Numbered from the stretch's first letter, positions 3,876 through 16,576 are shown. The stretch: 64,000 nt of DNA from an uncultured Thermoprotei archaeon (GCA_965367815.1 CBDUKN010000001.1:96001-160000); one strand, 5' to 3'. Made by a program: numbers and translations. Notes: a model not told the origin generated them from the sequence alone.

Positions 3876-4292
3876 ATGCCAGAAGATATTGAGCTAGAGA
3901 AAATAAAGTTGAAAAAACTAGCTAGGCTGCTGGGAGGAGGAAAAGAGAAGCCTCGAAGTGAAGTCATTGAAGTAGAGAGCTACGAGGAGTTTAAAGAACT
4001 TTTAGCGAAGTCGGCTAGTGAAGGCAAGTTGCTCGTAGTAGATTTCTGGGCTCCCTGGTGTCCTCCCTGCATAATGATGGCGCCTATCTTCAAAGAAGTA
4101 GCTAAAGAGCTTTCAGACAAAGTTCTCTTCGCTAAAGTAAATGTAGATAAAGTAAAGGAAGCTGCCCTAGACTACGGTATAACGGCAATACCTACTCTCA
4201 TGGCATTTAAAGGAGGAAAGCCTGTAAGCATGCGCGTAGGCTTCGCGCCTAAACCTGCTTTAAAGTCTTGGGTAGAGAGCCTAGTTAGATAA
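3876..4292 (+). CDS. trxA: thioredoxin
   Basis: VDFWAPWCPPC active site, IPT motif. Confidence 0.92.
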   Translation: MPEDIELEKIKLKKLARLLGGGKEKPRSEVIEVESYEEFKELLAKSASEGKLLVVDFWAPWCPPCIMMAPIFKEVAKELSDKVLFAKVNVDKVKEAALDYGITAIPTLMAFKGGKPVSMRVGFAPKPALKSWVESLVR

Positions 4293-5046
4293 GTTCTTCT
4301 GGTATAGAGTCCGGCCTGAAGCTCACTTTAGGCTTTATGCCCGCTTTTCTCAGACGCTCCATTACGTGAGGGTACTCAAAAACATATTCCTCCTCGAATT
4401 CCTCTACTAGTACTCTGTCTATTTCTTCTAGTCTTTGAATTAGGTACTTCAAACTCTCTTTAGTGCTGAAAGAAAGCATTACAGCAGGATGGCATTCAAC
4501 ACCGTAATCGAGAAGGTTTTTTAGTGCCTGGAGCTGGTACTCGAAGGACTTTGGTGTAGCGCCGGTAAGCATAGAGAATTCTTGGGGAGTACAGCCCTTA
4601 ATAGATACTCTCACGTGTACACATGTAAACTTAGAGAGATCTCGGGCATAAGACTTGTCATATCCTATGAGTATTCCATTAGTTTCCAGTATAAACAGGT
4701 ATTTTCCTGACTCTTCTACAAGCTCCAGCAGTTTAGTTAAATGTTCTCGGCCGATAGTTGGCTCGTTACCGCTTACTCTCAGCTGACGGTATCCTCTCCT
4801 CGAGGCACATTTATCGAGCTTCATGAAAATGTACTCAGGCGAATAAAACTTGCCTATTTTGTCTGGATGGTCTCGTGGTGCTCCGCTCCAGCAGAAAACA
4901 CATTTGAGGTTGCAGCCAACGCAGTCAGCTGTAGCTATTCCTCCATACCAGCGTCCTCCTCTAGCTACACGGTAGTATTTTCTAAGAGAATTCTTTGTTA
5001 CTATTCTCTTGAGAGCTTCAGCGTATTTTACGGGATCATAGGGCAT
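4285..5046 (-). CDS. radical SAM protein (archaeal activase-like family)
   Basis: CNLKCVFC (CxxxCxxC), SGNEP, ETNG. Confidence 0.85.
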   Translation of the reverse strand: MPYDPVKYAEALKRIVTKNSLRKYYRVARGGRWYGGIATADCVGCNLKCVFCWSGAPRDHPDKIGKFYSPEYIFMKLDKCASRRGYRQLRVSGNEPTIGREHLTKLLELVEESGKYLFILETNGILIGYDKSYARDLSKFTCVHVRVSIKGCTPQEFSMLTGATPKSFEYQLQALKNLLDYGVECHPAVMLSFSTKESLKYLIQRLEEIDRVLVEEFEEEYVFEYPHVMERLRKAGIKPKVSFRPDSIPEELI

Positions 5047-5123: not shown

Positions 5124-6362
5124 ATGGCCTTTATTTGGCTAAATTTAATTACTGTTGCTAGACTATTTTCTGTGATTATGAGAGAAGAATTTCCTGTACT
5201 CAAGAAAACTGTCTACTTGAATACTGCGGGCTACGGCCTTGTTCCACAAAGAGCTATAAAGAAGGTAGTGAGCACTGCTCAGCGTTTACTAGAGGAAGGG
5301 CCTTGGAATTCTTCCTTCGAGGAAAAAGTTTTAGATGAGGCTAGGAGAGAGGCCGCAAAAATCATAGGTGCTGAAGCAGAAGAAGTATTTTTTACCACGT
5401 CTACTACGACGGGTTTAAGTAAAGTCATAGCAATGGTTGGATTCAAGAAGGGGGATAATGTAGTTAGCTTCGACTTAGAGTTTCCTGGTGTTGCATCAGT
5501 AGTAAAGACATACTGTAGTAAAGTTGGCTGCGAAGTACGTATAGTAAGACATAGAAATGGCTTCTATGCGGTAGAAGATATTGAGAAGGCTGTTGATGAG
5601 AAAACAAAAGCTATTGTAGCTAGCAGTGTTCAGTGGGTTAATGGTTTAGTCATGCCACTCAAAGAAATGCGCGAAATAGCGGATAGAGTAGGTGCCTACT
5701 TGATTTTAGACTCAATACAGCATATAGGTGCAGTCAAGTTCAATGTAAATGAAATAAAGCCAGATTTCGCTGTAGCTGGTGGAGAAAAGTGGCTTCTTTC
5801 TACATGGTTTGGAGTTGGTCTAGTTTATGTTAGAAAAGAGCTTTTGAGCGAACTCGAGTCTCCTCCTTATGGCTTACATAACATGGAGGAGCCTGCCGAG
5901 ACATGGTCTCAGTACTGGTTCAATCCAGATAAAGACTGCTGGAAATTACTCGAGCTGAAGAAAACTGCAGCCAGGTTCGAGTGGGCCGGAACTCCACCGA
6001 TACTTGGTGTACTTGGTTTTACGGAGTCATTGAAGCTTTTAAATGAAATAGGAATAAACAAAATACATTATCACAATTTGTCGCTTAAAGAAAAGCTTAT
6101 AGATATAATAATTGAGCTAAATGGAGAGATAGTGACCTTTACTGAAAATAAAGAAAAGTGGTCTAGTATAACTACATTTAAATTAAGGAACATTAGTTTA
6201 AAAGAACACTATAACATAGTAGCTGAATTAAAGAAAAGAAACATTATTGTCGCAGCTAGAGGGGCTGGGGGACTAGGCGGTATAAGAGTATCACCGCATT
6301 TATACAATACAGTAGACGACTTAGAGAAGCTATTTGAAGTTATTAAAGAACTTATTAAGTAA
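5124..6362 (+). CDS. class V PLP-dependent aminotransferase (cysteine desulfurase/lyase-like); true start probably ATG 5178
   Basis: YLNTAG, DSIQHIG, GGEKW (PLP lysine), RVSPHLYN. Confidence 0.85.
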   Translation: MAFIWLNLITVARLFSVIMREEFPVLKKTVYLNTAGYGLVPQRAIKKVVSTAQRLLEEGPWNSSFEEKVLDEARREAAKIIGAEAEEVFFTTSTTTGLSKVIAMVGFKKGDNVVSFDLEFPGVASVVKTYCSKVGCEVRIVRHRNGFYAVEDIEKAVDEKTKAIVASSVQWVNGLVMPLKEMREIADRVGAYLILDSIQHIGAVKFNVNEIKPDFAVAGGEKWLLSTWFGVGLVYVRKELLSELESPPYGLHNMEEPAETWSQYWFNPDKDCWKLLELKKTAARFEWAGTPPILGVLGFTESLKLLNEIGINKIHYHNLSLKEKLIDIIIELNGEIVTFTENKEKWSSITTFKLRNISLKEHYNIVAELKKRNIIVAARGAGGLGGIRVSPHLYNTVDDLEKLFEVIKELIK

Positions 6363-7401: not shown

Positions 7402-8427
7402 GTGCGGAAACAGAACATGAACAGAAATTTCTCTGTTCTAAACTATCTTCGCAAATTAGAGAGTGAAAATAAACCTTTACTTGAGTTCAAGGCGAAAAGT
7501 TTCGACGAGTGGAGGGAGTGGAGAGAGAAGCTTAAGAGTAAGTTAATAGAGCTTCTCGGAGGTTTTCCTGAAGAAAAAGTTCCTCTAAACCCTGAGGTAG
7601 TCGAGTCCTTTGAGAAAGACAGTATTATTGTAGAGAAAGTAGTCTATGATACTGAGGAGAACTTTAGTGTTCCTGCTTATCTTCTCAAGCCAGCCGACCT
7701 TAAGGGTAAAGCTCCGGGTATTCTTGCGCTTCATGGTCATGGGCGAGGTAAAGTTGATGTGGCCGGGATAGCTTCAAGTGAAATAGAGTACCAGAGATAT
7801 ATTGCTCCGCTGAACTACGATTATGGCTTCAAGCTAGCTAAGAGAGGCTTCGTGGTACTAGTGCCTGATGGGAGATGCTTTGGCGAGCTGTCGAAGGATG
7901 GCGTGACCTGCACATGGGGATTTACTTCTTCTCTTTTGTTGGGCAAAACTATGGTTGGGCAAAGAGTATGGGACGCCATTAGATCTATTGATTATCTTCA
8001 ATTGCTGCCTTTCGTAGATAAGGAGAAGATAGGCTGTGTAGGGTTATCTTGGGGCGGCACGTGGACTGCCTATACGAGTGCACTCGACGAGAGGATAAAG
8101 GTGGCTGTTATAAGCGGATACTTCAGCACTTTTAGGGACATGCTTATTGAGAGAGGAGAGTGTCCCTGCCAGTATATACCGGGCATACTCAAGTACGCTG
8201 ATTTTCCCGATATTGTGGGCTTAATTGCTCCTCGACCACTCTTAATAGAGTACGGTAAAAGAGATCCTCTTTATACACCGTCTTACGTTATGAAGGCTTA
8301 TGAAAAGCTTAAGAGGATTTATGACTTCCTTGGTGCGGGCGACAAGCTAGACATAGATGTATTTGATGGAGGACACATGTTTTCAGGGAGAAAGTCTATA
8401 GCTTGGCTAGAGAGGTGGCTAAAGTGA
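7402..8427 (+). CDS. alpha/beta hydrolase (dienelactone hydrolase / acetylxylan esterase-like)
   Basis: LHGHG, GLSWGG nucleophile elbow, Asp in KRDPL, GGH. Confidence 0.85.
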   Translation: MRKQNMNRNFSVLNYLRKLESENKPLLEFKAKSFDEWREWREKLKSKLIELLGGFPEEKVPLNPEVVESFEKDSIIVEKVVYDTEENFSVPAYLLKPADLKGKAPGILALHGHGRGKVDVAGIASSEIEYQRYIAPLNYDYGFKLAKRGFVVLVPDGRCFGELSKDGVTCTWGFTSSLLLGKTMVGQRVWDAIRSIDYLQLLPFVDKEKIGCVGLSWGGTWTAYTSALDERIKVAVISGYFSTFRDMLIERGECPCQYIPGILKYADFPDIVGLIAPRPLLIEYGKRDPLYTPSYVMKAYEKLKRIYDFLGAGDKLDIDVFDGGHMFSGRKSIAWLERWLK

Positions 8428-9726
8428 AACTATTTTCTCGAAGAGCGAGTATAGGAGAGCTTTTTCTGGCTCGCTGTGAGCTTTTTTAATCAAAATAAAG
8501 AGGCCCCGGTCTCCTTCTTCGAGGAAAGAGAGCATTTCTCTTGCAATTAAATACGTTTTCCTTAAGCCTTTTTCTGTAGTTAAATCTGTTAAGTTATCGA
8601 AGACTAACAGGAATGGGTAGCGGCAGCGGCTGCGCATTTTTCTAAGTAAGTATATTATATGTGCTTGTTCAGCCGATACTTCGTATTCTCGGTCACTTAT
8701 TTGTTTAGGATAGCTTACAGGTTCTAGGTAGCAGAAAATAATAGGCAAGTTTTCTTCACTTAGTTTCTCTCTTAAGGGGCTTTTCTTCTTAGTAAAGATT
8801 ATTGTACAGTATTCTTTGGCCTGTAGAGTATTCTTAATTACGCTCGCTGCGTCACTAGGTGTGTCTACTTCAAGTAGTATGCTTTTGTCTGCCGAGACTT
8901 TCATATGTGAAGTACTTGCTGAAGCCAGGAGAGTTACGGGTGTAAAGCTGCTCCAAGTTAGTGCCATTATCAGTACGCCGAGAGCAACTATTTCGAAAGA
9001 TTTCTTGAGAAAGAATAGTGATAGTTGAGAATATGCGTAGAGATCTTCGAGAATATAGAGCGAGAGAACAATTATGAAAAAGAGTCCACTAAGTCTATAG
9101 AAGTCTATTATTAGCTGAATTGACCAGTTATCTGATCCTCTTGTGAAAAGCATTAGGGTCCACACGACTACTGCAGCTAGCATACATGTCTCGGGAAAAA
9201 TATCTTGTAATAGCTTGTTGAATGAAGGATACGTGTATCCTCCTCCTATACTGACTATAACAAATGTCAGTACTAGTAGAATAGCTGTAATAGTAGTTCC
9301 AACAGAAGAAACTGGAGTTATTGCTGGTTCGTGGACTGTTATTTTCTTTAGCCATAAGTATATTCCTATGGCTAGAAAAAGAGCTCCTGTTAGAGGTGGT
9401 ATCTTAAGTGTAAAGAGTTGCCCGTATTCTCTTATAGTCGCTAATTCGTCGCAGAGATCTAGTATTGTGGAGAGTGTTAAGAGGAGTACTCCTCTGAATA
9501 CAAGTCTCCACTCCGAGAACCTGTATTCGGGTCTTTTTAAGTAGACTATAGTTGTGTGAATAGATGCGTTTAGGATAATCATTGTGACAAAAATTTTCAT
9601 GTACAGTTTGTCCCACAATATAGTGAATCTAGGCATTATGTACCCTTGGGCAAATAGCCAAATGATAGTCGAGGCAGTCAAGGCGAGTACTCCGTAAAAT
9701 ACTGTATTTTCGATAACTCTTTTCAC
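8419..9726 (-). CDS. polytopic membrane protein with C-terminal DUF835-like (inactivated KaiC/RecA) domain
   Basis: About 8 hydrophobic segments, then a soluble domain with LVFDNLTDL (degenerate Walker B) and KAHSEPE; no Walker A. Confidence 0.7.
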   Translation of the reverse strand: MKRVIENTVFYGVLALTASTIIWLFAQGYIMPRFTILWDKLYMKIFVTMIILNASIHTTIVYLKRPEYRFSEWRLVFRGVLLLTLSTILDLCDELATIREYGQLFTLKIPPLTGALFLAIGIYLWLKKITVHEPAITPVSSVGTTITAILLVLTFVIVSIGGGYTYPSFNKLLQDIFPETCMLAAVVVWTLMLFTRGSDNWSIQLIIDFYRLSGLFFIIVLSLYILEDLYAYSQLSLFFLKKSFEIVALGVLIMALTWSSFTPVTLLASASTSHMKVSADKSILLEVDTPSDAASVIKNTLQAKEYCTIIFTKKKSPLREKLSEENLPIIFCYLEPVSYPKQISDREYEVSAEQAHIIYLLRKMRSRCRYPFLLVFDNLTDLTTEKGLRKTYLIAREMLSFLEEGDRGLFILIKKAHSEPEKALLYSLFEKIVSL

Positions 9727-9749
9727 TAGGTATATTTCGAGTGCCTAAT

Positions 9750-11039
9750 TTAAATCTCTAAGTATGTTCTTGTAAGCGACTTAAGTACTTCAATGTTCTT
9801 TTCTTCATGGGCTTTTACATAGACTATGAAGTATACAATATCTCCAGGTGAGAGAATACTGCTTATTTCTTTCACTATTTCATAGGACTTTTTATCTCCT
9901 CTCATTATATAAATATCTGTTAAGTTATCAAAAATTATTAGAACATTTGTTTTACTCGAAGACTTTACGGTTTTAACAAGCTTTACAATATGTGCAGTTT
10001 CTGGAGGTAAAGTGAACTCTGTAGGAGATATGCTCCGCGGATAAGAGGTTTCTGGGTCTAAATATGCTATAAATGATTTTTCTCGGAATTCGTAAAATAT
10101 CGATAAAAGAGGGCTTCCCCTCCTTGTTATAACTAGTATTGAGTAGCCTTGACGAGCATACGATGCTAGAATATCCCTGATATACTCAGAGTAGCCTACA
10201 ATAGATGTTATTCCTAAGAGAACTGATTCGCTGTATCTTCTTGTAATGGGCATTGAGGCCCCTATAAGTAGCATAGAGCCTCCGATGAAAATAAGTAAAG
10301 CTATGTTTACTGCTGTAAAACTTACTACTGCATCTATTATGCTGAAGTACCCTTTTGCAAATGCCAGTATTTTAATTAAAGTATAGGATGCTTCAAAAAC
10401 AAAGCCCAGCGCGATTAGCAGTTTAAAGGCCTCAATAGGATATGAATAGCTTTTGTAGTTATATGTTAAATAAAAACTGTATAATAAAGTAGCCTTAAAA
10501 ATAATTATATTTAATATTACTTCAACATAATCGTTCTCTATGCAATATGGAATATTTTCCTTAAATGTAATACTTATTATTGATGAAGAAATAGATAATA
10601 TGACGATTATTGCTAGTGAAAATACTATAAATGGCTTGAAAGTACGCGAAGTACTTTTTATAACACCTACTTTAATAAAATAGTTTTTCGTAGAGAGAAA
10701 TAGTATAGTAATTCCTATTGCGAAGCCGACGTTGCTAAGCAAGTACTTTAAGAATATTATGTCAGGTGAATAATACAGTGTTTCAGCTATAAGAGATAGC
10801 GCCACTACCATTAGTCCAGAAAAAATTTCTACTTGTTCTTTTTCGAAAGAATGTCCTGAAAGTATTAGTCCTATTAAACTTGACGCTACAAAGAATATGC
10901 AGATGTAAAAGGATAAGAGACTTAGTGAGAAGATTTCAAGAGAAAGGTAAGCTTTTCTTCCTCTGAAGAAAAGATATATTAAAAGGAGAATTGATAAAGA
11001 GAGCCAGCCTAAAACTATTTTATCGCGGTCTATTCTCAT
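9750..11039 (-). CDS. polytopic membrane protein with C-terminal DUF835-like domain (paralogue)
   Basis: About 8 TM segments; IIFDNLTDI, SYPRSIS and KAHEEKN match the neighbouring paralogue. Confidence 0.7.
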   Translation of the reverse strand: MRIDRDKIVLGWLSLSILLLIYLFFRGRKAYLSLEIFSLSLLSFYICIFFVASSLIGLILSGHSFEKEQVEIFSGLMVVALSLIAETLYYSPDIIFLKYLLSNVGFAIGITILFLSTKNYFIKVGVIKSTSRTFKPFIVFSLAIIVILSISSSIISITFKENIPYCIENDYVEVILNIIIFKATLLYSFYLTYNYKSYSYPIEAFKLLIALGFVFEASYTLIKILAFAKGYFSIIDAVVSFTAVNIALLIFIGGSMLLIGASMPITRRYSESVLLGITSIVGYSEYIRDILASYARQGYSILVITRRGSPLLSIFYEFREKSFIAYLDPETSYPRSISPTEFTLPPETAHIVKLVKTVKSSSKTNVLIIFDNLTDIYIMRGDKKSYEIVKEISSILSPGDIVYFIVYVKAHEEKNIEVLKSLTRTYLEI

Positions 11040-11725
11040 GGCTTAAATGGCGCTAACACTTCGAAGCCTTTATCAGTAATCGATATCTCATAGTATGCTC
11101 TACTGTGTCCAGCAACTCTGTTCTTAAGAACTGTCAGTCTTAAAGTATATCCTTCTGCTCGCTCGTATTGCTCTAGCTTAATAATAGTATCACACATGAA
11201 TTCTTCTACGCCAACTGTAGGCGACTTACCTGTAAGTGAGATTTCTCCTACAAGAATTCCAAGAAGCTTTTTGTCTATAATATGTTTATAAAGTGACCCC
11301 AGAATACCTCTTACTTTGACTACCGGTATAAAATTAACTAGAGAAGTTATACTGTCTAAAGCTATGTTAGAGAATTCTCCTGTCTCTACTTTGGCTAAGA
11401 CTTCTTCCAGCAAAGTAGCAACTATATTTTCCTCTGAAATCGGTGTACCATAAGCTACTTCAATTAAGTTATTTTCTACTAGTTTTTCGAAGTCTATACC
11501 CATTGACTTCAATCTGGAGATAAGGAGAGAGGGGTGTTCTGAGGTGCATATATAGAGTCCTTTTTCACTATGTTTCTTAGCTCTCTCGTAGAGAATCTGG
11601 GCACAAAGTGTTGTTTTTCCTGTACCAGTATGTCCCACTAGGTACACGACTCCAGGTCTAGGTAATCCCCCTCCTAGCACTTCATCGAGTCCAGGAATAT
11701 AGGTTTTGATCAGCTCGACGTGCAT
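11036..11725 (-). CDS. single-domain KaiC/RAD55-like RecA-superfamily ATPase
   Basis: IPGLDEVLGGGL, Walker A GHTGTGKT, Walker B IALDS, LKNR finger. Confidence 0.9.
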   Translation of the reverse strand: MHVELIKTYIPGLDEVLGGGLPRPGVVYLVGHTGTGKTTLCAQILYERAKKHSEKGLYICTSEHPSLLISRLKSMGIDFEKLVENNLIEVAYGTPISEENIVATLLEEVLAKVETGEFSNIALDSITSLVNFIPVVKVRGILGSLYKHIIDKKLLGILVGEISLTGKSPTVGVEEFMCDTIIKLEQYERAEGYTLRLTVLKNRVAGHSRAYYEISITDKGFEVLAPFKP

Positions 11726-11802
11726 ACTAGACCACTACATATTAAATCCGCTAGGCTATTAAAATATAGTTTAGAGAATCAGTTAAAGTATTGTTTGGTG
11801 AA

Positions 11803-12432
11803 TTATATGCCTATGGAAATTATTCTGCGGTAAAGGCTTAAATGATTTAATGTCTCAGGATTTTTAACTAATATAGCTTTTATTCTAAGAGATACTGGTA
11901 TTTTATAGTCGTAAGTAAAGTTGTCTCCTATGTGCACTATCGAGCTTGCAGGTACTTTAAGATCTTTAACAACTCTTGCGTAAAAACTTCTAGTTTTTCT
12001 TACTAAGGAGTAGTCACTTACACACGAATATATTTCCCTAAAGTAGCTTCTAATAGAGAGGTAGTCTAGGATACTAGTGGCTAGTTCTCTAGGAGCATTA
12101 GTGCAGAGAATTATCTTAATTTTCATTTTAGATAGAGTGTGTAAAAGGGGTTTCACATAAGGATATGGTTTACTTTCTCCAAAAGCTTCGTGTATTAGCT
12201 CGTTTAAGCTCTTTTTAATACCTAGGCACTTCAGCCAAAAATCGGGTAAGTACCATCTTATGTCGCTATCGCCTATTTCATCGTACTTTGAGTAGACGAT
12301 TCTCTTAGCTTCATTTAACTTTAAGCCCTTTTCTTCAGCATATGTTCTCGGTATTACTTCAAGCCAGAAATAGTCATTGTACTTTCTATCGATAATAGTT
12401 CCATCAAGATCAAAGGATACTACTCTTAGCAT
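11803..12432 (-). CDS. HAD-IA family hydrolase
   Basis: FDLDGT, CTNA, HIGDNFTYD. Confidence 0.88.
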   Translation of the reverse strand: MLRVVSFDLDGTIIDRKYNDYFWLEVIPRTYAEEKGLKLNEAKRIVYSKYDEIGDSDIRWYLPDFWLKCLGIKKSLNELIHEAFGESKPYPYVKPLLHTLSKMKIKIILCTNAPRELATSILDYLSIRSYFREIYSCVSDYSLVRKTRSFYARVVKDLKVPASSIVHIGDNFTYDYKIPVSLRIKAILVKNPETLNHLSLYRRIISIGI

Positions 12433-12437
12433 AACTA

Positions 12438-13550
12438 CTACACTTTCCAGTCTTTAGGAGGCTCTCTTTTTGTAGATACTCGAATGAAGCTGAGTATTAG
12501 TATTAAAAGCCATATTGGCGAGTAAATGAAGTAATACAGAAGGAACTCATACATCTTGAACTCATATTCGAGTTTTCTAGCAAAATAGTAGAAAACAGCA
12601 GTTATCGCAGCAGTAGCTATAATTAGCGGTATTAGGTTTCTGTGAAGAGAGTATCCTAGAGAAATTAGAACTAGGATAATTAAAAGAGGATCATATTTCA
12701 GCGCAGTAAGCAGAATAAAGGTTACTACAAGATATTCTCCCAGAGTTAGGCTCAATGAAATAAATGTGAAGAAGATCACTAGCGAGGGAATTAGCATCAG
12801 TAGTCCGAGTATTGTTAGTAGAGGGTTCTCTTTAACGAATTTTGCTAGTTCTTTCCAGTACTTAAAAATCCACTGAGCTACACCATATCCCCATCTCCTT
12901 CTCTGCTTAAACCACGTTTTCCAAGAAGGAGGGGCAGGCATATACACAGAGAGATTATTGAGAAACATGTACTTCATTCCATGTAGATACGACTTTGTGC
13001 CTATATCTAAGTCTTCGCAAACTACTCTAGAAAATCCCCCTATTTTTTCGAATGCGCTTTTCTTAATGGCAAATGCTGCGCCATTGACTGCCAAACATTT
13101 ACTTAATTTACGTGAAAAAACCCAGTTAATAGCGCTATAGCTTAGGTAGTCGTAGTGAACAAGTCTCGAGAGTACTCCTTTTCTAAAAACTCTTTTGCTC
13201 ATTTCAACTACTTCATAGTGGTTTGTAGCGTGGGCTATTTCCGCCAAGAAACTGTTCTTGGGTTTTATTTGGGCAATGTCGCTGTCTATAAAAACAAGTA
13301 TGTCTCCCGAGGCTTGCTTAACTGCGTTATTGAGCGCCGTAACTTTCCCTAAACGCGTTTTATTGAAGATAAATTTTACTTTATCTTTGTACTTGTCTGC
13401 CAGCTTTAGGCTTTTTACTGTAGGCTCGTCTACGATAACAATTACTTCCTTTTTCTCATAGGGGTCTTTGAGAAGCTGGTCAAGTAGACTTTGAAGCTGG
13501 TCTGATTCTCTGTAGACGGGTATTAGTACGCTGATCAGCGGAGTGTCCAT
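12438..13550 (-). CDS. membrane-bound GT2 glycosyltransferase (processive-type motifs)
   Basis: DSD (DxD), EDLD, QRRRW, C-terminal TM helices. Confidence 0.88.
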   Translation of the reverse strand: MDTPLISVLIPVYRESDQLQSLLDQLLKDPYEKKEVIVIVDEPTVKSLKLADKYKDKVKFIFNKTRLGKVTALNNAVKQASGDILVFIDSDIAQIKPKNSFLAEIAHATNHYEVVEMSKRVFRKGVLSRLVHYDYLSYSAINWVFSRKLSKCLAVNGAAFAIKKSAFEKIGGFSRVVCEDLDIGTKSYLHGMKYMFLNNLSVYMPAPPSWKTWFKQRRRWGYGVAQWIFKYWKELAKFVKENPLLTILGLLMLIPSLVIFFTFISLSLTLGEYLVVTFILLTALKYDPLLIILVLISLGYSLHRNLIPLIIATAAITAVFYYFARKLEYEFKMYEFLLYYFIYSPIWLLILILSFIRVSTKREPPKDWKV

Positions 13551-13630: not shown

Positions 13631-14464
13631 GTGTTAGTTAGAGAGTTCACGCTATCCGACTTCAAGCAAGTAGACGACTTGCTATCTTCAACTTACGCAG
13701 GCTTTACGACACTTAAAAACGTGTCCGATATACTATACTTTCAGGGAAAATATCCTCACTTGTCGCTTGTCGCAGAAGATGAAGAGTTCATAGGACATAT
13801 TTTTGCAATAGAGTTCACGAGAAGAAAACCTTTGCTCTTCAGAAAAGTTAAAGGAAAATGTTATGAGCTGAAATGCTTTTTAATGCGTCCTAAGTACTGG
13901 AGAGACCAGTACTTGAGCGAAATTATGGACTGGTTTCTTAAAAAACTTGAAAAATACTTTGTTAAAGGAATAGTTGCTGAAGTAGAGCTTCACCAGATTG
14001 AAGCAGTAGAGTTTCTTTTCAGAAGTGGGATGAGAATTCACGAAGTAAGCTATTTTAAGCCCGTAGAGAAGAAAGAACAGTATTTTAAGCCTACTGAAAT
14101 AGAGGACATAGGTTATTTGAAGGACTTCGAGCTACATAGTGTTTCGGACTATAAGTTATCTGAAGAGGATTTAGAGAAGCATACAACTTTTTACGTGAAT
14201 CGAGAAAATGAGGGCAAGTGTCTAGTAGTTGTTAGAAAAGAAAACGATATCGGTAGAATTACGTATTTAGCGGTATCTAGAAATGCTCTTTCTTCTGGAC
14301 TTTTCTCTAAAGTTCTCGACTCTATAGTTAGCGAGCTGTACTACCTTGGGGCAGAAATTCTTGTCTTGGACTGCTTAGTTGAGAAAAGAGAATTCAGGAG
14401 GTATTTAAGAGAACTAGGCTTTTATCCCTTCTCGTGCTTCCTTTACATGGTGTTAAGAGACTAA
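13631..14464 (+). CDS. tandem GNAT-fold acetyltransferase-like protein
   Basis: Two GNAT-like halves (MLVREFTLSD...FIGHI; GRITYLAVS...LRELGF). Confidence 0.6.
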   Translation: MLVREFTLSDFKQVDDLLSSTYAGFTTLKNVSDILYFQGKYPHLSLVAEDEEFIGHIFAIEFTRRKPLLFRKVKGKCYELKCFLMRPKYWRDQYLSEIMDWFLKKLEKYFVKGIVAEVELHQIEAVEFLFRSGMRIHEVSYFKPVEKKEQYFKPTEIEDIGYLKDFELHSVSDYKLSEEDLEKHTTFYVNRENEGKCLVVVRKENDIGRITYLAVSRNALSSGLFSKVLDSIVSELYYLGAEILVLDCLVEKREFRRYLRELGFYPFSCFLYMVLRD

Positions 14465-16576
14465 AGTCTGTAATAAAAGTCCTGTATAGTAAACTGTGAG
14501 TGAGACGACTGTAGCTAAAGCTACCATATATATTGTTGCGAAAATAGTGGTTCTTAAGCTTCTGCTTTCGAAAAATATTGCAGCTAAAGTAGCTAAGCAG
14601 GGAACATAGAGTGTCATGAAAACTAAGAGAGAGTATGCCTGTAGTGGAGTTAAGCCTAGTGCTAATAGTGCTTCACGAGTAGAGAGAGTACCACCGTACA
14701 TTACGGCTATTGTTTCCACCAGAGCTTCTTTAGCAACAAATCCCTGTAGAAGTGCAAAAGCTGTTTTCCAGGCGTTTTCTCCGTAAATGCCATAGAGCGC
14801 TAGCAGTGGAGCCAGAGTCTTACCAATTATTGCTCCAAAGCTTTCTTCTACACTGCTTGCTAGCCCTGAGGGACTGTAGCTTAGTAGCCACCACGTAGCT
14901 ACGCTTAAAGCCACTATTATTGTACCTGCTTTTCTCAGGAAGTGCTTGCTGTAATCCCATGTGAGCCACCAAACTACTTTGAGTGAAGGCTTGTGTATTG
15001 GAGGTATTTCGAGAATTAGTTCGGGAGGCTCTTTCTTTTTAAACCGAAGTGCTCGCATTAAAAGTGACGTAAGTAGTGTGAGAAAAATGGCTATGATGTA
15101 TATGCTGACTATAGCGAAAGCTTGGTGAAGAGGGGAAGTAAAGTAAGCTGTAGTAAAAGCTAAGATAACTAATAGTCTTGCTTGACAAGGTATAATAGGT
15201 GCTGAAAATATGATCTGTCTTCTTTCCTCTTCTTCTATCGATGCTCTAGAAGCCATTACTGCGGGAACATTACATCCTAAGCCTATTATCAGGGGATATA
15301 TTGCTTTGCCTGAAAGCCCGAAGTAGTTGAAGAATCTATTTACCGATACAGCTATACGGGGACCTATACCGCTATCTTCTATTATCGAGAGAGCGATGTA
15401 TATTACTACGATAAGAGGGAAGAATGAAAGTACGCTGCCTACACCTGGTACTATTCCGTCTACTACAAGCGATACTAGCCAGTCAGGTAGCTTAGCCCGC
15501 ACCATTATTTGCCTTAAAATGTCGCTCAAGTAGTTGAAGACAGTGTCTATTAGCCCGCTTAAGCTGTATTCTTCTACTACTTCGGCGGCTTCAGAAAATC
15601 CCATGAAGTCGAGTAATATATTCAGCGGAAAGCCCGTATTCAGCGCAAAGGCTGCTGTAAAAGCTAGAAGAAGAACTAAAAGCCCTAGTGGGGGGCCGTA
15701 AACAGGGTGTATTAAAAGCTTTTCGAGTAGAGATTCCTCGGATACTGCAGAAGTCTTGACTCTCACAACAACTTCTCTAGCAATAGAGTCTACGAGATTA
15801 AATCTAGACGTAATAACATGTTCGCCTATGTCTTTTCCAGTGCTTCTAGTAATAGCGGTTCTCAAACGCCTTATTTCTTCTATTAGCTTTTCAAAGCCTC
15901 TTTGTTCAAGTATTTCTTCTAGCCTCAAGTCTCCTTCAAGAAGCTTTACAGCAGCCCATCGTCGATCGTACTCAGGTAAAGCATTATACTTGCTCAGCAG
16001 AGACTCTACTTCAGCTATATGGGGCTCTAGCCACGAATAGTTTACTTTTAAGGGCTTTTTCCTGCCTTTTTTCCCTTCAGCTACATCGACTACTGCATCG
16101 AGAAGTTCTCTCAGTCCTGTACCTTCTAGAGCCGAAACTAAGACTACAGGGACACCAAGCTTTTCTTCAAGTTTATTGACGTGTATGTGTATTCCTAAAC
16201 TGTGAGCAGAGTCAGCTTTAGTCAGCGCTACGACAACTCTAGGTGTTAACTCAAGAACCTGTATAGCTAAATTTAGTGTTCTTTCAGGAGCTGTAGAGTC
16301 TACTAAAACTAAAACTACATCGGGTTCTCCGCTGACAATATATTCTCTGGCAACGATTTCTTCAGGTGAAGTAGCCGAAATAGAGTATGTTCCAGGTAAA
16401 TCAACAAATCTTATTTTTTTTCCTCGGTATTCTCTAAAGCCTTCTTTCCGTTCAACAGTTGTTCCAGGCCAGTTAGCTACATGTGCTATTTCTCCAGTTA
16501 AAATAGTGAATAGCGTGGACTTGCCTACATTAGGATTTCCTGCTACTGCTACAACTATTACCTTCTTCTCCGACAT
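14453..16576 (-). CDS. feoB: ferrous iron transporter B
   Basis: GNPNVGKS, NWPGTTVE, DLPG GTPase motifs; GLGCNVPA, LYVPC; multiple TM segments. Confidence 0.95.
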   Translation of the reverse strand: MSEKKVIVVAVAGNPNVGKSTLFTILTGEIAHVANWPGTTVERKEGFREYRGKKIRFVDLPGTYSISATSPEEIVAREYIVSGEPDVVLVLVDSTAPERTLNLAIQVLELTPRVVVALTKADSAHSLGIHIHVNKLEEKLGVPVVLVSALEGTGLRELLDAVVDVAEGKKGRKKPLKVNYSWLEPHIAEVESLLSKYNALPEYDRRWAAVKLLEGDLRLEEILEQRGFEKLIEEIRRLRTAITRSTGKDIGEHVITSRFNLVDSIAREVVVRVKTSAVSEESLLEKLLIHPVYGPPLGLLVLLLAFTAAFALNTGFPLNILLDFMGFSEAAEVVEEYSLSGLIDTVFNYLSDILRQIMVRAKLPDWLVSLVVDGIVPGVGSVLSFFPLIVVIYIALSIIEDSGIGPRIAVSVNRFFNYFGLSGKAIYPLIIGLGCNVPAVMASRASIEEEERRQIIFSAPIIPCQARLLVILAFTTAYFTSPLHQAFAIVSIYIIAIFLTLLTSLLMRALRFKKKEPPELILEIPPIHKPSLKVVWWLTWDYSKHFLRKAGTIIVALSVATWWLLSYSPSGLASSVEESFGAIIGKTLAPLLALYGIYGENAWKTAFALLQGFVAKEALVETIAVMYGGTLSTREALLALGLTPLQAYSLLVFMTLYVPCLATLAAIFFESRSLRTTIFATIYMVALATVVSLTVYYTGLLLQTLVS

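Follow-up and report, generated by a model that had tools for sequence, protein, structure and literature searches.

A KaiC-like ATPase gene paired with two diverged membrane proteins bearing inactivated-KaiC-like tails in a Thermoprotei archaeon

In a 64,000-nucleotide (nt) stretch of DNA from an uncultured Thermoprotei archaeon (GCA_965367815.1, CBDUKN010000001.1:96001-160000; hereafter the window), three open reading frames (ORFs) at positions 8419-11725, all on the minus strand, encode a single-domain KaiC-like ATPase and, behind it, two tandem membrane proteins, M1 and M2, whose C-terminal cytoplasmic tails appear to be KaiC-type domains that have lost most of their catalytic motifs (Table 1). 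We lean, if only somewhat, towards reading the locus as a self-contained membrane-sensor/KaiC-ATPase module. Archaeal KaiC-like ATPases are said to have been proposed in 2017, by Makarova, Galperin and Koonin, as signal transduction hubs that work with inactivated versions of the KaiC domain (iKaiC), among them DUF835 and MEDS. In parts of a later survey (Galperin et al. 2018, PMC5847659), both of these domains are classed as iKaiC, with reference to the 2017 proposal. The present locus is a compact member of this kind, a real and conserved module that adds no new principle; what stands out locally is a tail subfamily invisible to Pfam, a minimal dead domain of 165 residues, and two diverged receptors placed behind one ATPase. 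How Crenarchaeota/Thermoproteota sense the outside is an open question, histidine kinases and response regulators being absent from finished genomes according to parts of the same survey (PMC5847659). The locus comes close to a minimal test case: it has three genes and a 165-residue tail whose model carries very high confidence. The module is kept across at least eight family-level lineages of the phylum.

The ATPase, 229 residues long, matches PF06745 over almost its whole length (residues 6-225; E 1.7e-42, 145.8 bits against a cut-off of 26.6) and carries the Walker A sequence GHTGTGKT. When it was aligned with the 15 KaiCs that neighbour related receptors (together, the 16 cognate KaiCs), G31, G34, G36, K37, T38, E63, D124 and S125 were invariant in all 16 proteins, as were R139, E174, E175, K201 and R203; here E63 is the catalytic glutamate, D124-S125 form Walker B, and K201/R203 lie in the Lys/Arg finger region. 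Because the PF06745 motifs are intact and the key residues are invariant among the cognates, the enzyme looks catalytically competent, in agreement with an earlier reading of this DNA (the original prediction), which had described an intact single-domain KaiC-like ATPase. It scores under every NCBIfam equivalog cut-off, whether for circadian KaiC, for the four archaeal KaiC equivalogs or for ArlH. The ATGA overlap between its stop codon and the start of M1, also noticed earlier, can be read directly in the sequence and suggests translational coupling of the two genes, and M2 begins at a GTG codon 23 nt after the M1 stop.

Both tails carry the motifs SYP(R/K)(S/Q)IS, AHI, FDNLTD and KAH that the original prediction had listed, along with GSP/KSP, and a motif search found GxxxxGK[ST] in neither of them. 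AlphaFold2 (AF2) modelling of the M1 tail from a 31-row alignment gave a predicted local distance difference test score (pLDDT) of 95.3 and a predicted template-modelling score of 0.90. In the alignment and the model, the loop after strand 1 is five residues long and holds no Gly-Lys-Ser/Thr. Strand 2 ends in T-(R/K)-x-G-S-P across the alignment, with RRGSP or KKKSP after it in the two tails, where a KaiC would have its catalytic glutamate, and the Walker B aspartate (D107) is the sole catalytic motif residue kept. The strand that spans residues 102-107 finishes at this near-invariant aspartate of FDNLTD, and strands and helices follow one another as in the RecA core. At about 165 residues, the M1 and M2 tails stop before the K..R..H (Arg-finger) region of KaiC and before the last strand that most relatives keep.

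Structural searches point to the same fold. Foldseek placed FlaH/ArlH (4yds, E 7.8e-7) at the top for the M1 tail, followed by 2w0m, KaiC 8zn5 and 2dr3; matches to FlaH, Sso2452, KaiC (designed and native) and PH0284 spanned E 7.8e-7 to 1e-4, and the 98 PDB matches at E<=0.001 included DMC1/RAD51, RecA and Elp4/5/6 further down. Independently of Foldseek, VIA returned Z-scores of 13.0-12.1 for Elp4/5/6, PH0250, Sso2452, PH0284, PH0321 and FlaH, the best match being 4a8j_D (Z 13.0, root-mean-square deviation 2.5 over 147 residues). Sequence profiles gave a fainter signal: hhalign aligned the tail profile with five cognate KaiCs over 61 columns around Walker B, a marginal match (probability 51.6%, E 1.5e-4) that sets FDNLTD of the tail onto LDSITS of the KaiC Walker B, and a PDB sequence search with the tail profile returned nothing under E 0.08. 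A RecA-like fold, on which the original prediction had staked its view of the tails, was thus found. The combination of a RecA/KaiC fold with the loss of the P-loop, the catalytic glutamate and the finger region supports reading both tails, from sequence and model, as inactivated KaiC/RecA-fold domains.

The family label attached to the tails needs refinement. The original prediction had called them DUF835-like, which is right at the level of the superfamily and does not hold as Pfam membership. PF05763 (DUF835) matches neither tail at E<=1, and six-frame genome searches at E<=10 with PF05763 and with PF24336 missed both. Searched against all of Pfam, M1 had no family at E<=0.001, its weaker rows (E 0.01-0.04, DUF7090 at E 0.02 among them) being of chance level, M2 gave nothing at E<=1, and neither protein had an NCBIfam match at usable thresholds. 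A profile built from the two tails, run against a library of 1.84 billion proteins, recovered 220 cluster representatives at E<=0.001 and 47 at E<=1e-10, most of them 400-470 residues long with the domain at the C-terminus. We scanned 110 of 150 rows with Pfam, comprising M1 and the 109 best-ranked matches outside its own cluster representative, and leaving out 40 lower-ranked rows; at E<=0.001 this set holds 48 matches to DUF7504, 43 to DUF835, 35 to DUF7090, seven each to MEDS and HTH_45, and three to KaiC, with none for M1. L020, a relative from the same order, clears the DUF835 cut-off with 41.6 bits (threshold 33.1), and seven of the ten longer relatives found by a word-index search with the tail profile carry a precomputed PF05763 annotation. 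Together, these intermediates support transitive homology between the M1 and M2 tails and the DUF835/DUF7504/DUF7090/MEDS superfamily, and they indicate that current Pfam models miss part of the iKaiC family, the M1/M2 tail subfamily included.

The same scan turned up an architecture of a different sort, in which an N-terminal HTH_45 winged helix is fused to a dead-KaiC domain (7 of the 110 scanned members; P0010, of 408 residues, is one of the family representatives). Such proteins are soluble candidates for an output side, and the tail profile found no HTH_45 fusion of this type in the window's own genome.

The membrane parts of M1 and M2 have taken a separate course from the tails. By hydropathy, the N-terminal ~265 residues of each protein contain about eight hydrophobic segments, and an AF2 model of whole M1 places helices at residues 5-26, 32-61, 67-90, 95-123, 134-162, 170-193, 202-229 and 232-249, which agrees with the two tandem proteins of ~8 transmembrane (TM) helices described earlier. 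Overall pLDDT in that model is 72.1, and the means of 10-residue blocks lie between 36 and 79 over residues 1-280; because confidence in the membrane part is low and the packing of the helices unreliable, the model serves only to count helices. BLASTP aligns M1 with M2 over the C-terminal 153 residues only (33% identity, E 1e-22). In shuffle tests the tails scored far above chance (z 30; 0 of 300 shuffles matched the score), whereas the membrane parts showed no detectable similarity (z 0.59; 84 of 300), so the contrast between homologous tails and highly divergent membrane regions drawn in the original prediction stands. Each protein is nevertheless maintained among its own relatives. A word-index search with whole M1 found three homologues (P0001-P0003; 96, 91 and 72% identical), of which the most distant, P0003, is 63% identical to M1 over the membrane part and 85% over the tail, and M2 shares 91% of its membrane part and 96% of its tail with its cluster representative P0004. 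A genome of the same genus (G001) carries both genes. Judged by these comparisons, M1 and M2 are real, conserved genes, and M1 appears to be under purifying selection.

To see how far the arrangement extends, we followed the tail profile through related genomes. Hits came from 8 of 61 relatives, from 9 of the 98 genomes in the class and from 49 of the 401 in the phylum (the last at E<=1e-5); some of the weakest are likely to be genuine KaiCs picked up through their Walker B region. Comparison of five same-order loci with 14 strong loci from other families of the phylum, the synteny survey that the original prediction had suggested as a check, revealed a same-strand KaiC gene upstream of the receptor in 15 of the 19 (4/5 within the order, 11/14 elsewhere in the phylum). 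In eight of the paired loci the two genes are direct neighbours, spaced anywhere between a 4-nt overlap and a 93-nt gap; in two others 355-438 nt separate them, and the remaining five have one GH3-like gene of 540-571 codons between KaiC and receptor. The relatives L020-L023 show a 4-nt overlap or 2-nt gaps, and start/stop overlaps or 2-nt gaps occur in five lineages, the pairing itself being present in at least eight at family level. Two of the unpaired loci (L071 and L074) lie 1.5-2 kb from a contig end. By our own rough estimate, made from ~10 KaiC-family genes among ~2,000 genes and not computed as a test, chance would place a KaiC beside a receptor in well under 1% of loci. The flanking genes scanned in five relatives' loci (phosphoribosyltransferase/DHDPS, YdjM, TIM, SpoIIM, and archaellin/winged helix-turn-helix (wHTH)/HIT) differ from locus to locus, which argues that something holds the KaiC-receptor pair together.

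In their phylogenies the two partners diverge in parallel. One tree combined the 16 cognate KaiCs with three RadA-like proteins and the remaining KaiC paralogues of the genome; here the KaiC of the window clusters with its counterpart from G234, which represents another family (support 100/99). The other cognate KaiCs form three supported groups that recur in the tail tree, where M1, M2 and the G234 receptor tail make up a supported trio (SH-aLRT 98). Because the two trees give matching groups, KaiC and receptor appear to travel together. Within the trio the tails are about equidistant (path lengths 2.8-2.9), so the duplication that gave rise to M1 and M2 would be either old or fast-evolving.

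Several related loci depart from the layout in the window. In two families, KaiC, a 540-571-residue GH3-like adenylate-forming enzyme and a dead-KaiC-tail membrane protein of 552-717 residues form a one-strand cassette (Table 1). As in the window, KaiC stands upstream and the receptor tails belong to the same family as those of M1 and M2, whereas the window receptors are shorter (429-435 residues) and duplicated and have no GH3 gene with them. In another variant, receptors directly downstream of KaiC bear two consecutive dead KaiC-type domains, MEDS and then a DUF835/DUF7504-type tail (Table 1). A second lineage with tandem receptors is G004, whose locus L024 (6135-8943) contains two membrane-iKaiC genes of 456 and 463 codons; the upstream neighbour is a 195-residue ORF. 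In G234, the closest relative of the window module (L069, 2268-8464) has on one side an archaellin-family gene (PF01917, E 3.2e-31) and a divergent wHTH gene of MarR/TrmB type, and on the other a HIT gene and a second wHTH gene (DUF7343/MarR_2); this neighbourhood is a possible hint, from one lineage, of an output or a link to surface filaments.

The signalling repertoire of the genome gives the locus its context. The assembly, 99.4% complete, yielded 0 HisKA and 0 REC matches in searches whose controls were positive in 12 of 14 reference genomes, and a single HATPase_c match, inside a 533-aa open frame. This agrees with the earlier statement that the lineage generally lacks histidine kinases and with parts of Galperin et al. 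2018 (PMC5847659), which give 44 finished crenarchaeal genomes without a histidine kinase or response regulator. No KaiB passed its cut-off in the genome (best E 0.58). Of the genome's 14 PF06745 matches at E<=0.001, 12 exceed the cut-off, and a dedicated KaiC hidden Markov model separated ~8 KaiC-like from three RadA-like proteins. Elsewhere in the genome are a double-domain KaiC of 441 residues (C6:53051-54376), a divergently transcribed pair of KaiC-like genes (C9:9298-11274) and a 267-residue KaiC-like protein that passes the DUF7504 cut-off with its Walker A kept (C5:114213-115016). The last of these and C9:10450-11274, both soluble proteins, had come up as candidate dead KaiCs through matches to DUF835/DUF7504 or to the tail profile; both keep Walker A and were set aside as divergent KaiCs.

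As a working mechanism for the sensor module, we propose that the dead tail would dock on the live KaiC as a subunit or a mimic of one, through side-by-side RecA-fold contacts, and that the state of the membrane domain would thereby control KaiC oligomerisation, ATPase activity or autophosphorylation, by analogy with ArlH. The two receptors would descend from an old duplication, their membrane parts having diverged fully since, and would feed two inputs to one ATPase. Because the membrane parts diverged so completely, these inputs are probably different, and the shortness of the inter-helix loops favours sensing inside or close to the membrane over sensing by a large external domain. The fusions to wHTH, MEDS, REC and PAS domains suit a dead domain that serves as a general KaiC adaptor. 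A predicted 1:1 complex of KaiC with the M1 tail, run without controls, scored 0.00 against a mark of 0.32 and speaks neither for nor against binding. A bolder extension, which we regard as doubtful, is that dead-KaiC membrane proteins serve as the main transmembrane receptors where two-component systems are missing, as pseudo-subunits of a dedicated KaiC ring; here two receptors with unrelated membrane sensors would compete for or co-occupy the ring, whose ATPase and phosphorylation state would integrate the two inputs. If true, two receptors on one KaiC ring would make up a KaiC-based counterpart of the histidine-kinase signalling array.

Each of the better-known relatives resembles the module in part. 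Like the proposed iKaiC hubs, the window sets an active single-domain KaiC beside a KaiC-fold domain that lacks ATPase motifs and is fused to a presumed membrane input; it differs in that M1 and M2 go unseen by the Pfam iKaiC models, in the minimal 165-residue tail, and in the sharing of one KaiC by two receptors with unrelated-looking membrane parts. Among the titles and abstract openings searched (archaellum, Haloferax and cyanobacterial work), none described an experiment on a membrane iKaiC receptor. ArlH (FlaH; PDB 4yds and 4wia) provides a single-domain KaiC fold working at the membrane with partners, and the tail matches these two structures in VIA at Z 12.1 and 11.8. According to parts of one study (bioRxiv 10.1101/2021.03.19.436134), ArlH autophosphorylation needs the catalytic glutamate and sets oligomer size and ArlI binding. 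That glutamate has its counterpart in E63 of the window KaiC; ArlH keeps its nucleotide-binding loop, whereas the M1 and M2 tails do not. The window KaiC is itself no ArlH by family score (48.8 against 215 bits), and the stretch examined holds no archaellum genes, the neighbours being a HAD hydrolase, a GT2 glycosyltransferase and an alpha/beta hydrolase. In the Elp4/5/6 and RAD51-paralogue complexes (PDB 4a8j, 4ejs, 8faz and 9q25) there are precedents for catalytically dead RecA-fold subunits joining one another, or live subunits, in an assembly; these complexes are eukaryotic and soluble and act on tRNA or DNA, the window tails being akin to them by fold only (8-13% identity). Cyanobacterial circadian KaiABC shares a Pfam family with the window ATPase, which departs from circadian KaiC as a single domain of 229 residues that scores 107.7 against 408 bits for NF006799 and 66.7 against 546 for TIGR02655, with no KaiB over the cut-off.

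We weighed the sensor module against other readings of the same genes. The 8-helix domains could instead constitute a membrane machine for transport, flipping or secretion, to which the tails tether KaiC as an energising or gating subunit, much as ArlH sits on ArlI/ArlJ. The pairing of KaiC with a membrane protein fits such a machine equally well, as does a module without an output gene in its scanned flanks, and FlaH/ArlH is the tail's top Foldseek match. We nonetheless consider this reading unlikely, since the membrane parts of M1, M2 and their relatives have diverged beyond recognition although the tails remain alignable, a pattern typical of sensor inputs and unusual for a catalytic or transport core. 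Neither Pfam nor NCBIfam offers a transporter family that matches M1 or M2; in the atlas, the structures that resemble the membrane part come from N-terminal 7TM modules of histidine kinases and GGDEF proteins, all under the service's own bar; and the fusions of the tail family to wHTH and MEDS (7/110 each) and, in parts of Galperin et al. 2018 (PMC5847659), to REC and PAS make up a signalling repertoire. It would also be possible to draw the unit wider, as a five-gene operon in which the module regulates the upstream GT2 and HAD genes and the whole controls the synthesis of a surface glycan or polysaccharide. All five genes share a strand, GT2 and HAD are 5 nt apart and HAD and KaiC 77 nt, and a BcsA-type GT2 figures as an output domain of archaeal response regulators in a table of Galperin et al. 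2018 (PMC5847659). Against this stands the absence of GT2 and HAD genes from the flanks scanned in five relatives' loci (1-5 genes each; the same-genus contig begins inside M1), and we rate the wider operon as improbable.

Linkage could, again, be purely historical, the tails having come from a duplicated KaiC that was fused to a membrane protein and the genes having stayed neighbours by descent without interacting. Tail and KaiC are homologous folds and their binding is something we infer, both of which suit this reading; we think it has a small chance of being right, given that the pairing persists in at least eight family-level lineages even though tail and KaiC can be aligned only around Walker B (probability 52%), that genes overlap at start and stop or lie 2 nt apart in five lineages, and that the trees diverge in parallel. 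Anti-phage defence built on a KaiC-like NTPase came up because PADLOC matched the ATPase weakly to mad8 (E 5.2e-7); this match covers residues 21-97 only, the P-loop region, M1 and M2 match nothing in PADLOC, and no recognised mobile-element or defence family occurs among the scanned ORFs (window 7402-13550), so that we reject defence as very improbable.

Other observations count against the sensor module we prefer. At the level of topology, a manual reading of the positive-inside rule suits M2 as an 8-TM protein with both ends inside and leaves the first two helices of M1 ambiguous. No KaiC lies near the receptors in G004 (13 kb fetched) or G174 (11.9 kb fetched), so KaiC adjacency is not obligatory, and kinship inflates the count of 15/19: a single genus supplied five of the loci, and two other families supplied a pair each. 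The KaiC tree does not separate the cognates as a clade from the paralogues, 10 of its 24 inner branches being open, and so does not show that the pairing arose once in ancient times. The three genes include no output component, the conserved module has no DNA-binding or effector gene, and no output gene recurs beside it among the one to five flanking genes scanned in each of five loci. Finally, tail-KaiC contact, co-transcription and the sensing of ligands are, for this module, predictions.

Table 1. Coordinates of the module, its flanking genes and variant loci; window positions are counted from its first letter
Feature	Sequence	Coordinates	Strand	Evidence
KaiC-like ATPase, 229 aa, single-domain, predicted active	window	11036..11725	-	ORF listing; PF06745
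M1, 429-aa membrane protein with C-terminal inactivated-KaiC tail (predicted)	window	9750..11039	-	ORF listing
M2, 435-aa paralogue of the same architecture, GTG start	window	8419..9726	-	ORF listing
M1 membrane region, residues 1-264, ~8 helices	window	10248..11039	-	hydropathy; AF2 helices, low confidence
M1 cytoplasmic tail, residues 265-429, RecA/KaiC fold (predicted)	window	9753..10247	-	AF2, Foldseek, VIA, hhalign
M2 membrane region, residues 1-269, ~8 hydrophobic segments	window	8920..9726	-	hydropathy; shuffle test against M1
M2 cytoplasmic inactivated-KaiC tail (predicted), residues 270-435	window	8422..8919	-	BLASTP, shuffle test, shared motifs
ATGA overlap, KaiC stop and M1 start	window	11036..11039	-	sequence: ...AAG CCA TGA against ATG AGA ATA, other frame
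A/T-rich spacer, 77 nt, upstream of KaiC gene	window	11726..11802	-	sequence
HAD hydrolase	window	11803..12432	same as module	ORF listing; PF00702 E 3.5e-19
GT2 glycosyltransferase, hydrophobic C-terminal half	window	12438..13550	same as module	ORF listing; PF13641 E 1.1e-22
Alpha/beta-hydrolase gene	window	7402..8427	+	ORF listing; PF12715 E 6.6e-22
GH3 cassette	L072	6093-10094		
GH3 cassette	L073	6063-10499		GH3_M E 7e-9
GH3 cassette	L075	2101-6543		
GH3 cassette	L076	6057-10600		
GH3 cassette	L077	2006-6531		
Double-dead-domain receptor (masked run of N inside)	L066	5957-7240		
Double-dead-domain receptor	L067	88-1614		
Double-dead-domain receptor	L070	789-2642		

The borders of the module in the window can be placed from its neighbours. 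Upstream, the 77-nt spacer is a possible promoter site for the KaiC module. Downstream, the 3′ end of M2 and the convergent alpha/beta-hydrolase gene share 9 nt (8419-8427), and because the hydrolase gene overlaps the last 9 nt of M2 the transcription unit must end there; this overlap leaves no space for a terminator between the two genes.

Further out, three ORFs were classified by eye from their translations: a 707-residue ORF that looks like an FeoB-type iron transporter (14453-16576, minus strand), a radical-SAM-like ORF with a CxxxCxxC motif (4285-5046, minus strand) and a class-V-aminotransferase-like ORF (5124-6362, plus strand). With no obvious link to the module, they look like housekeeping context.

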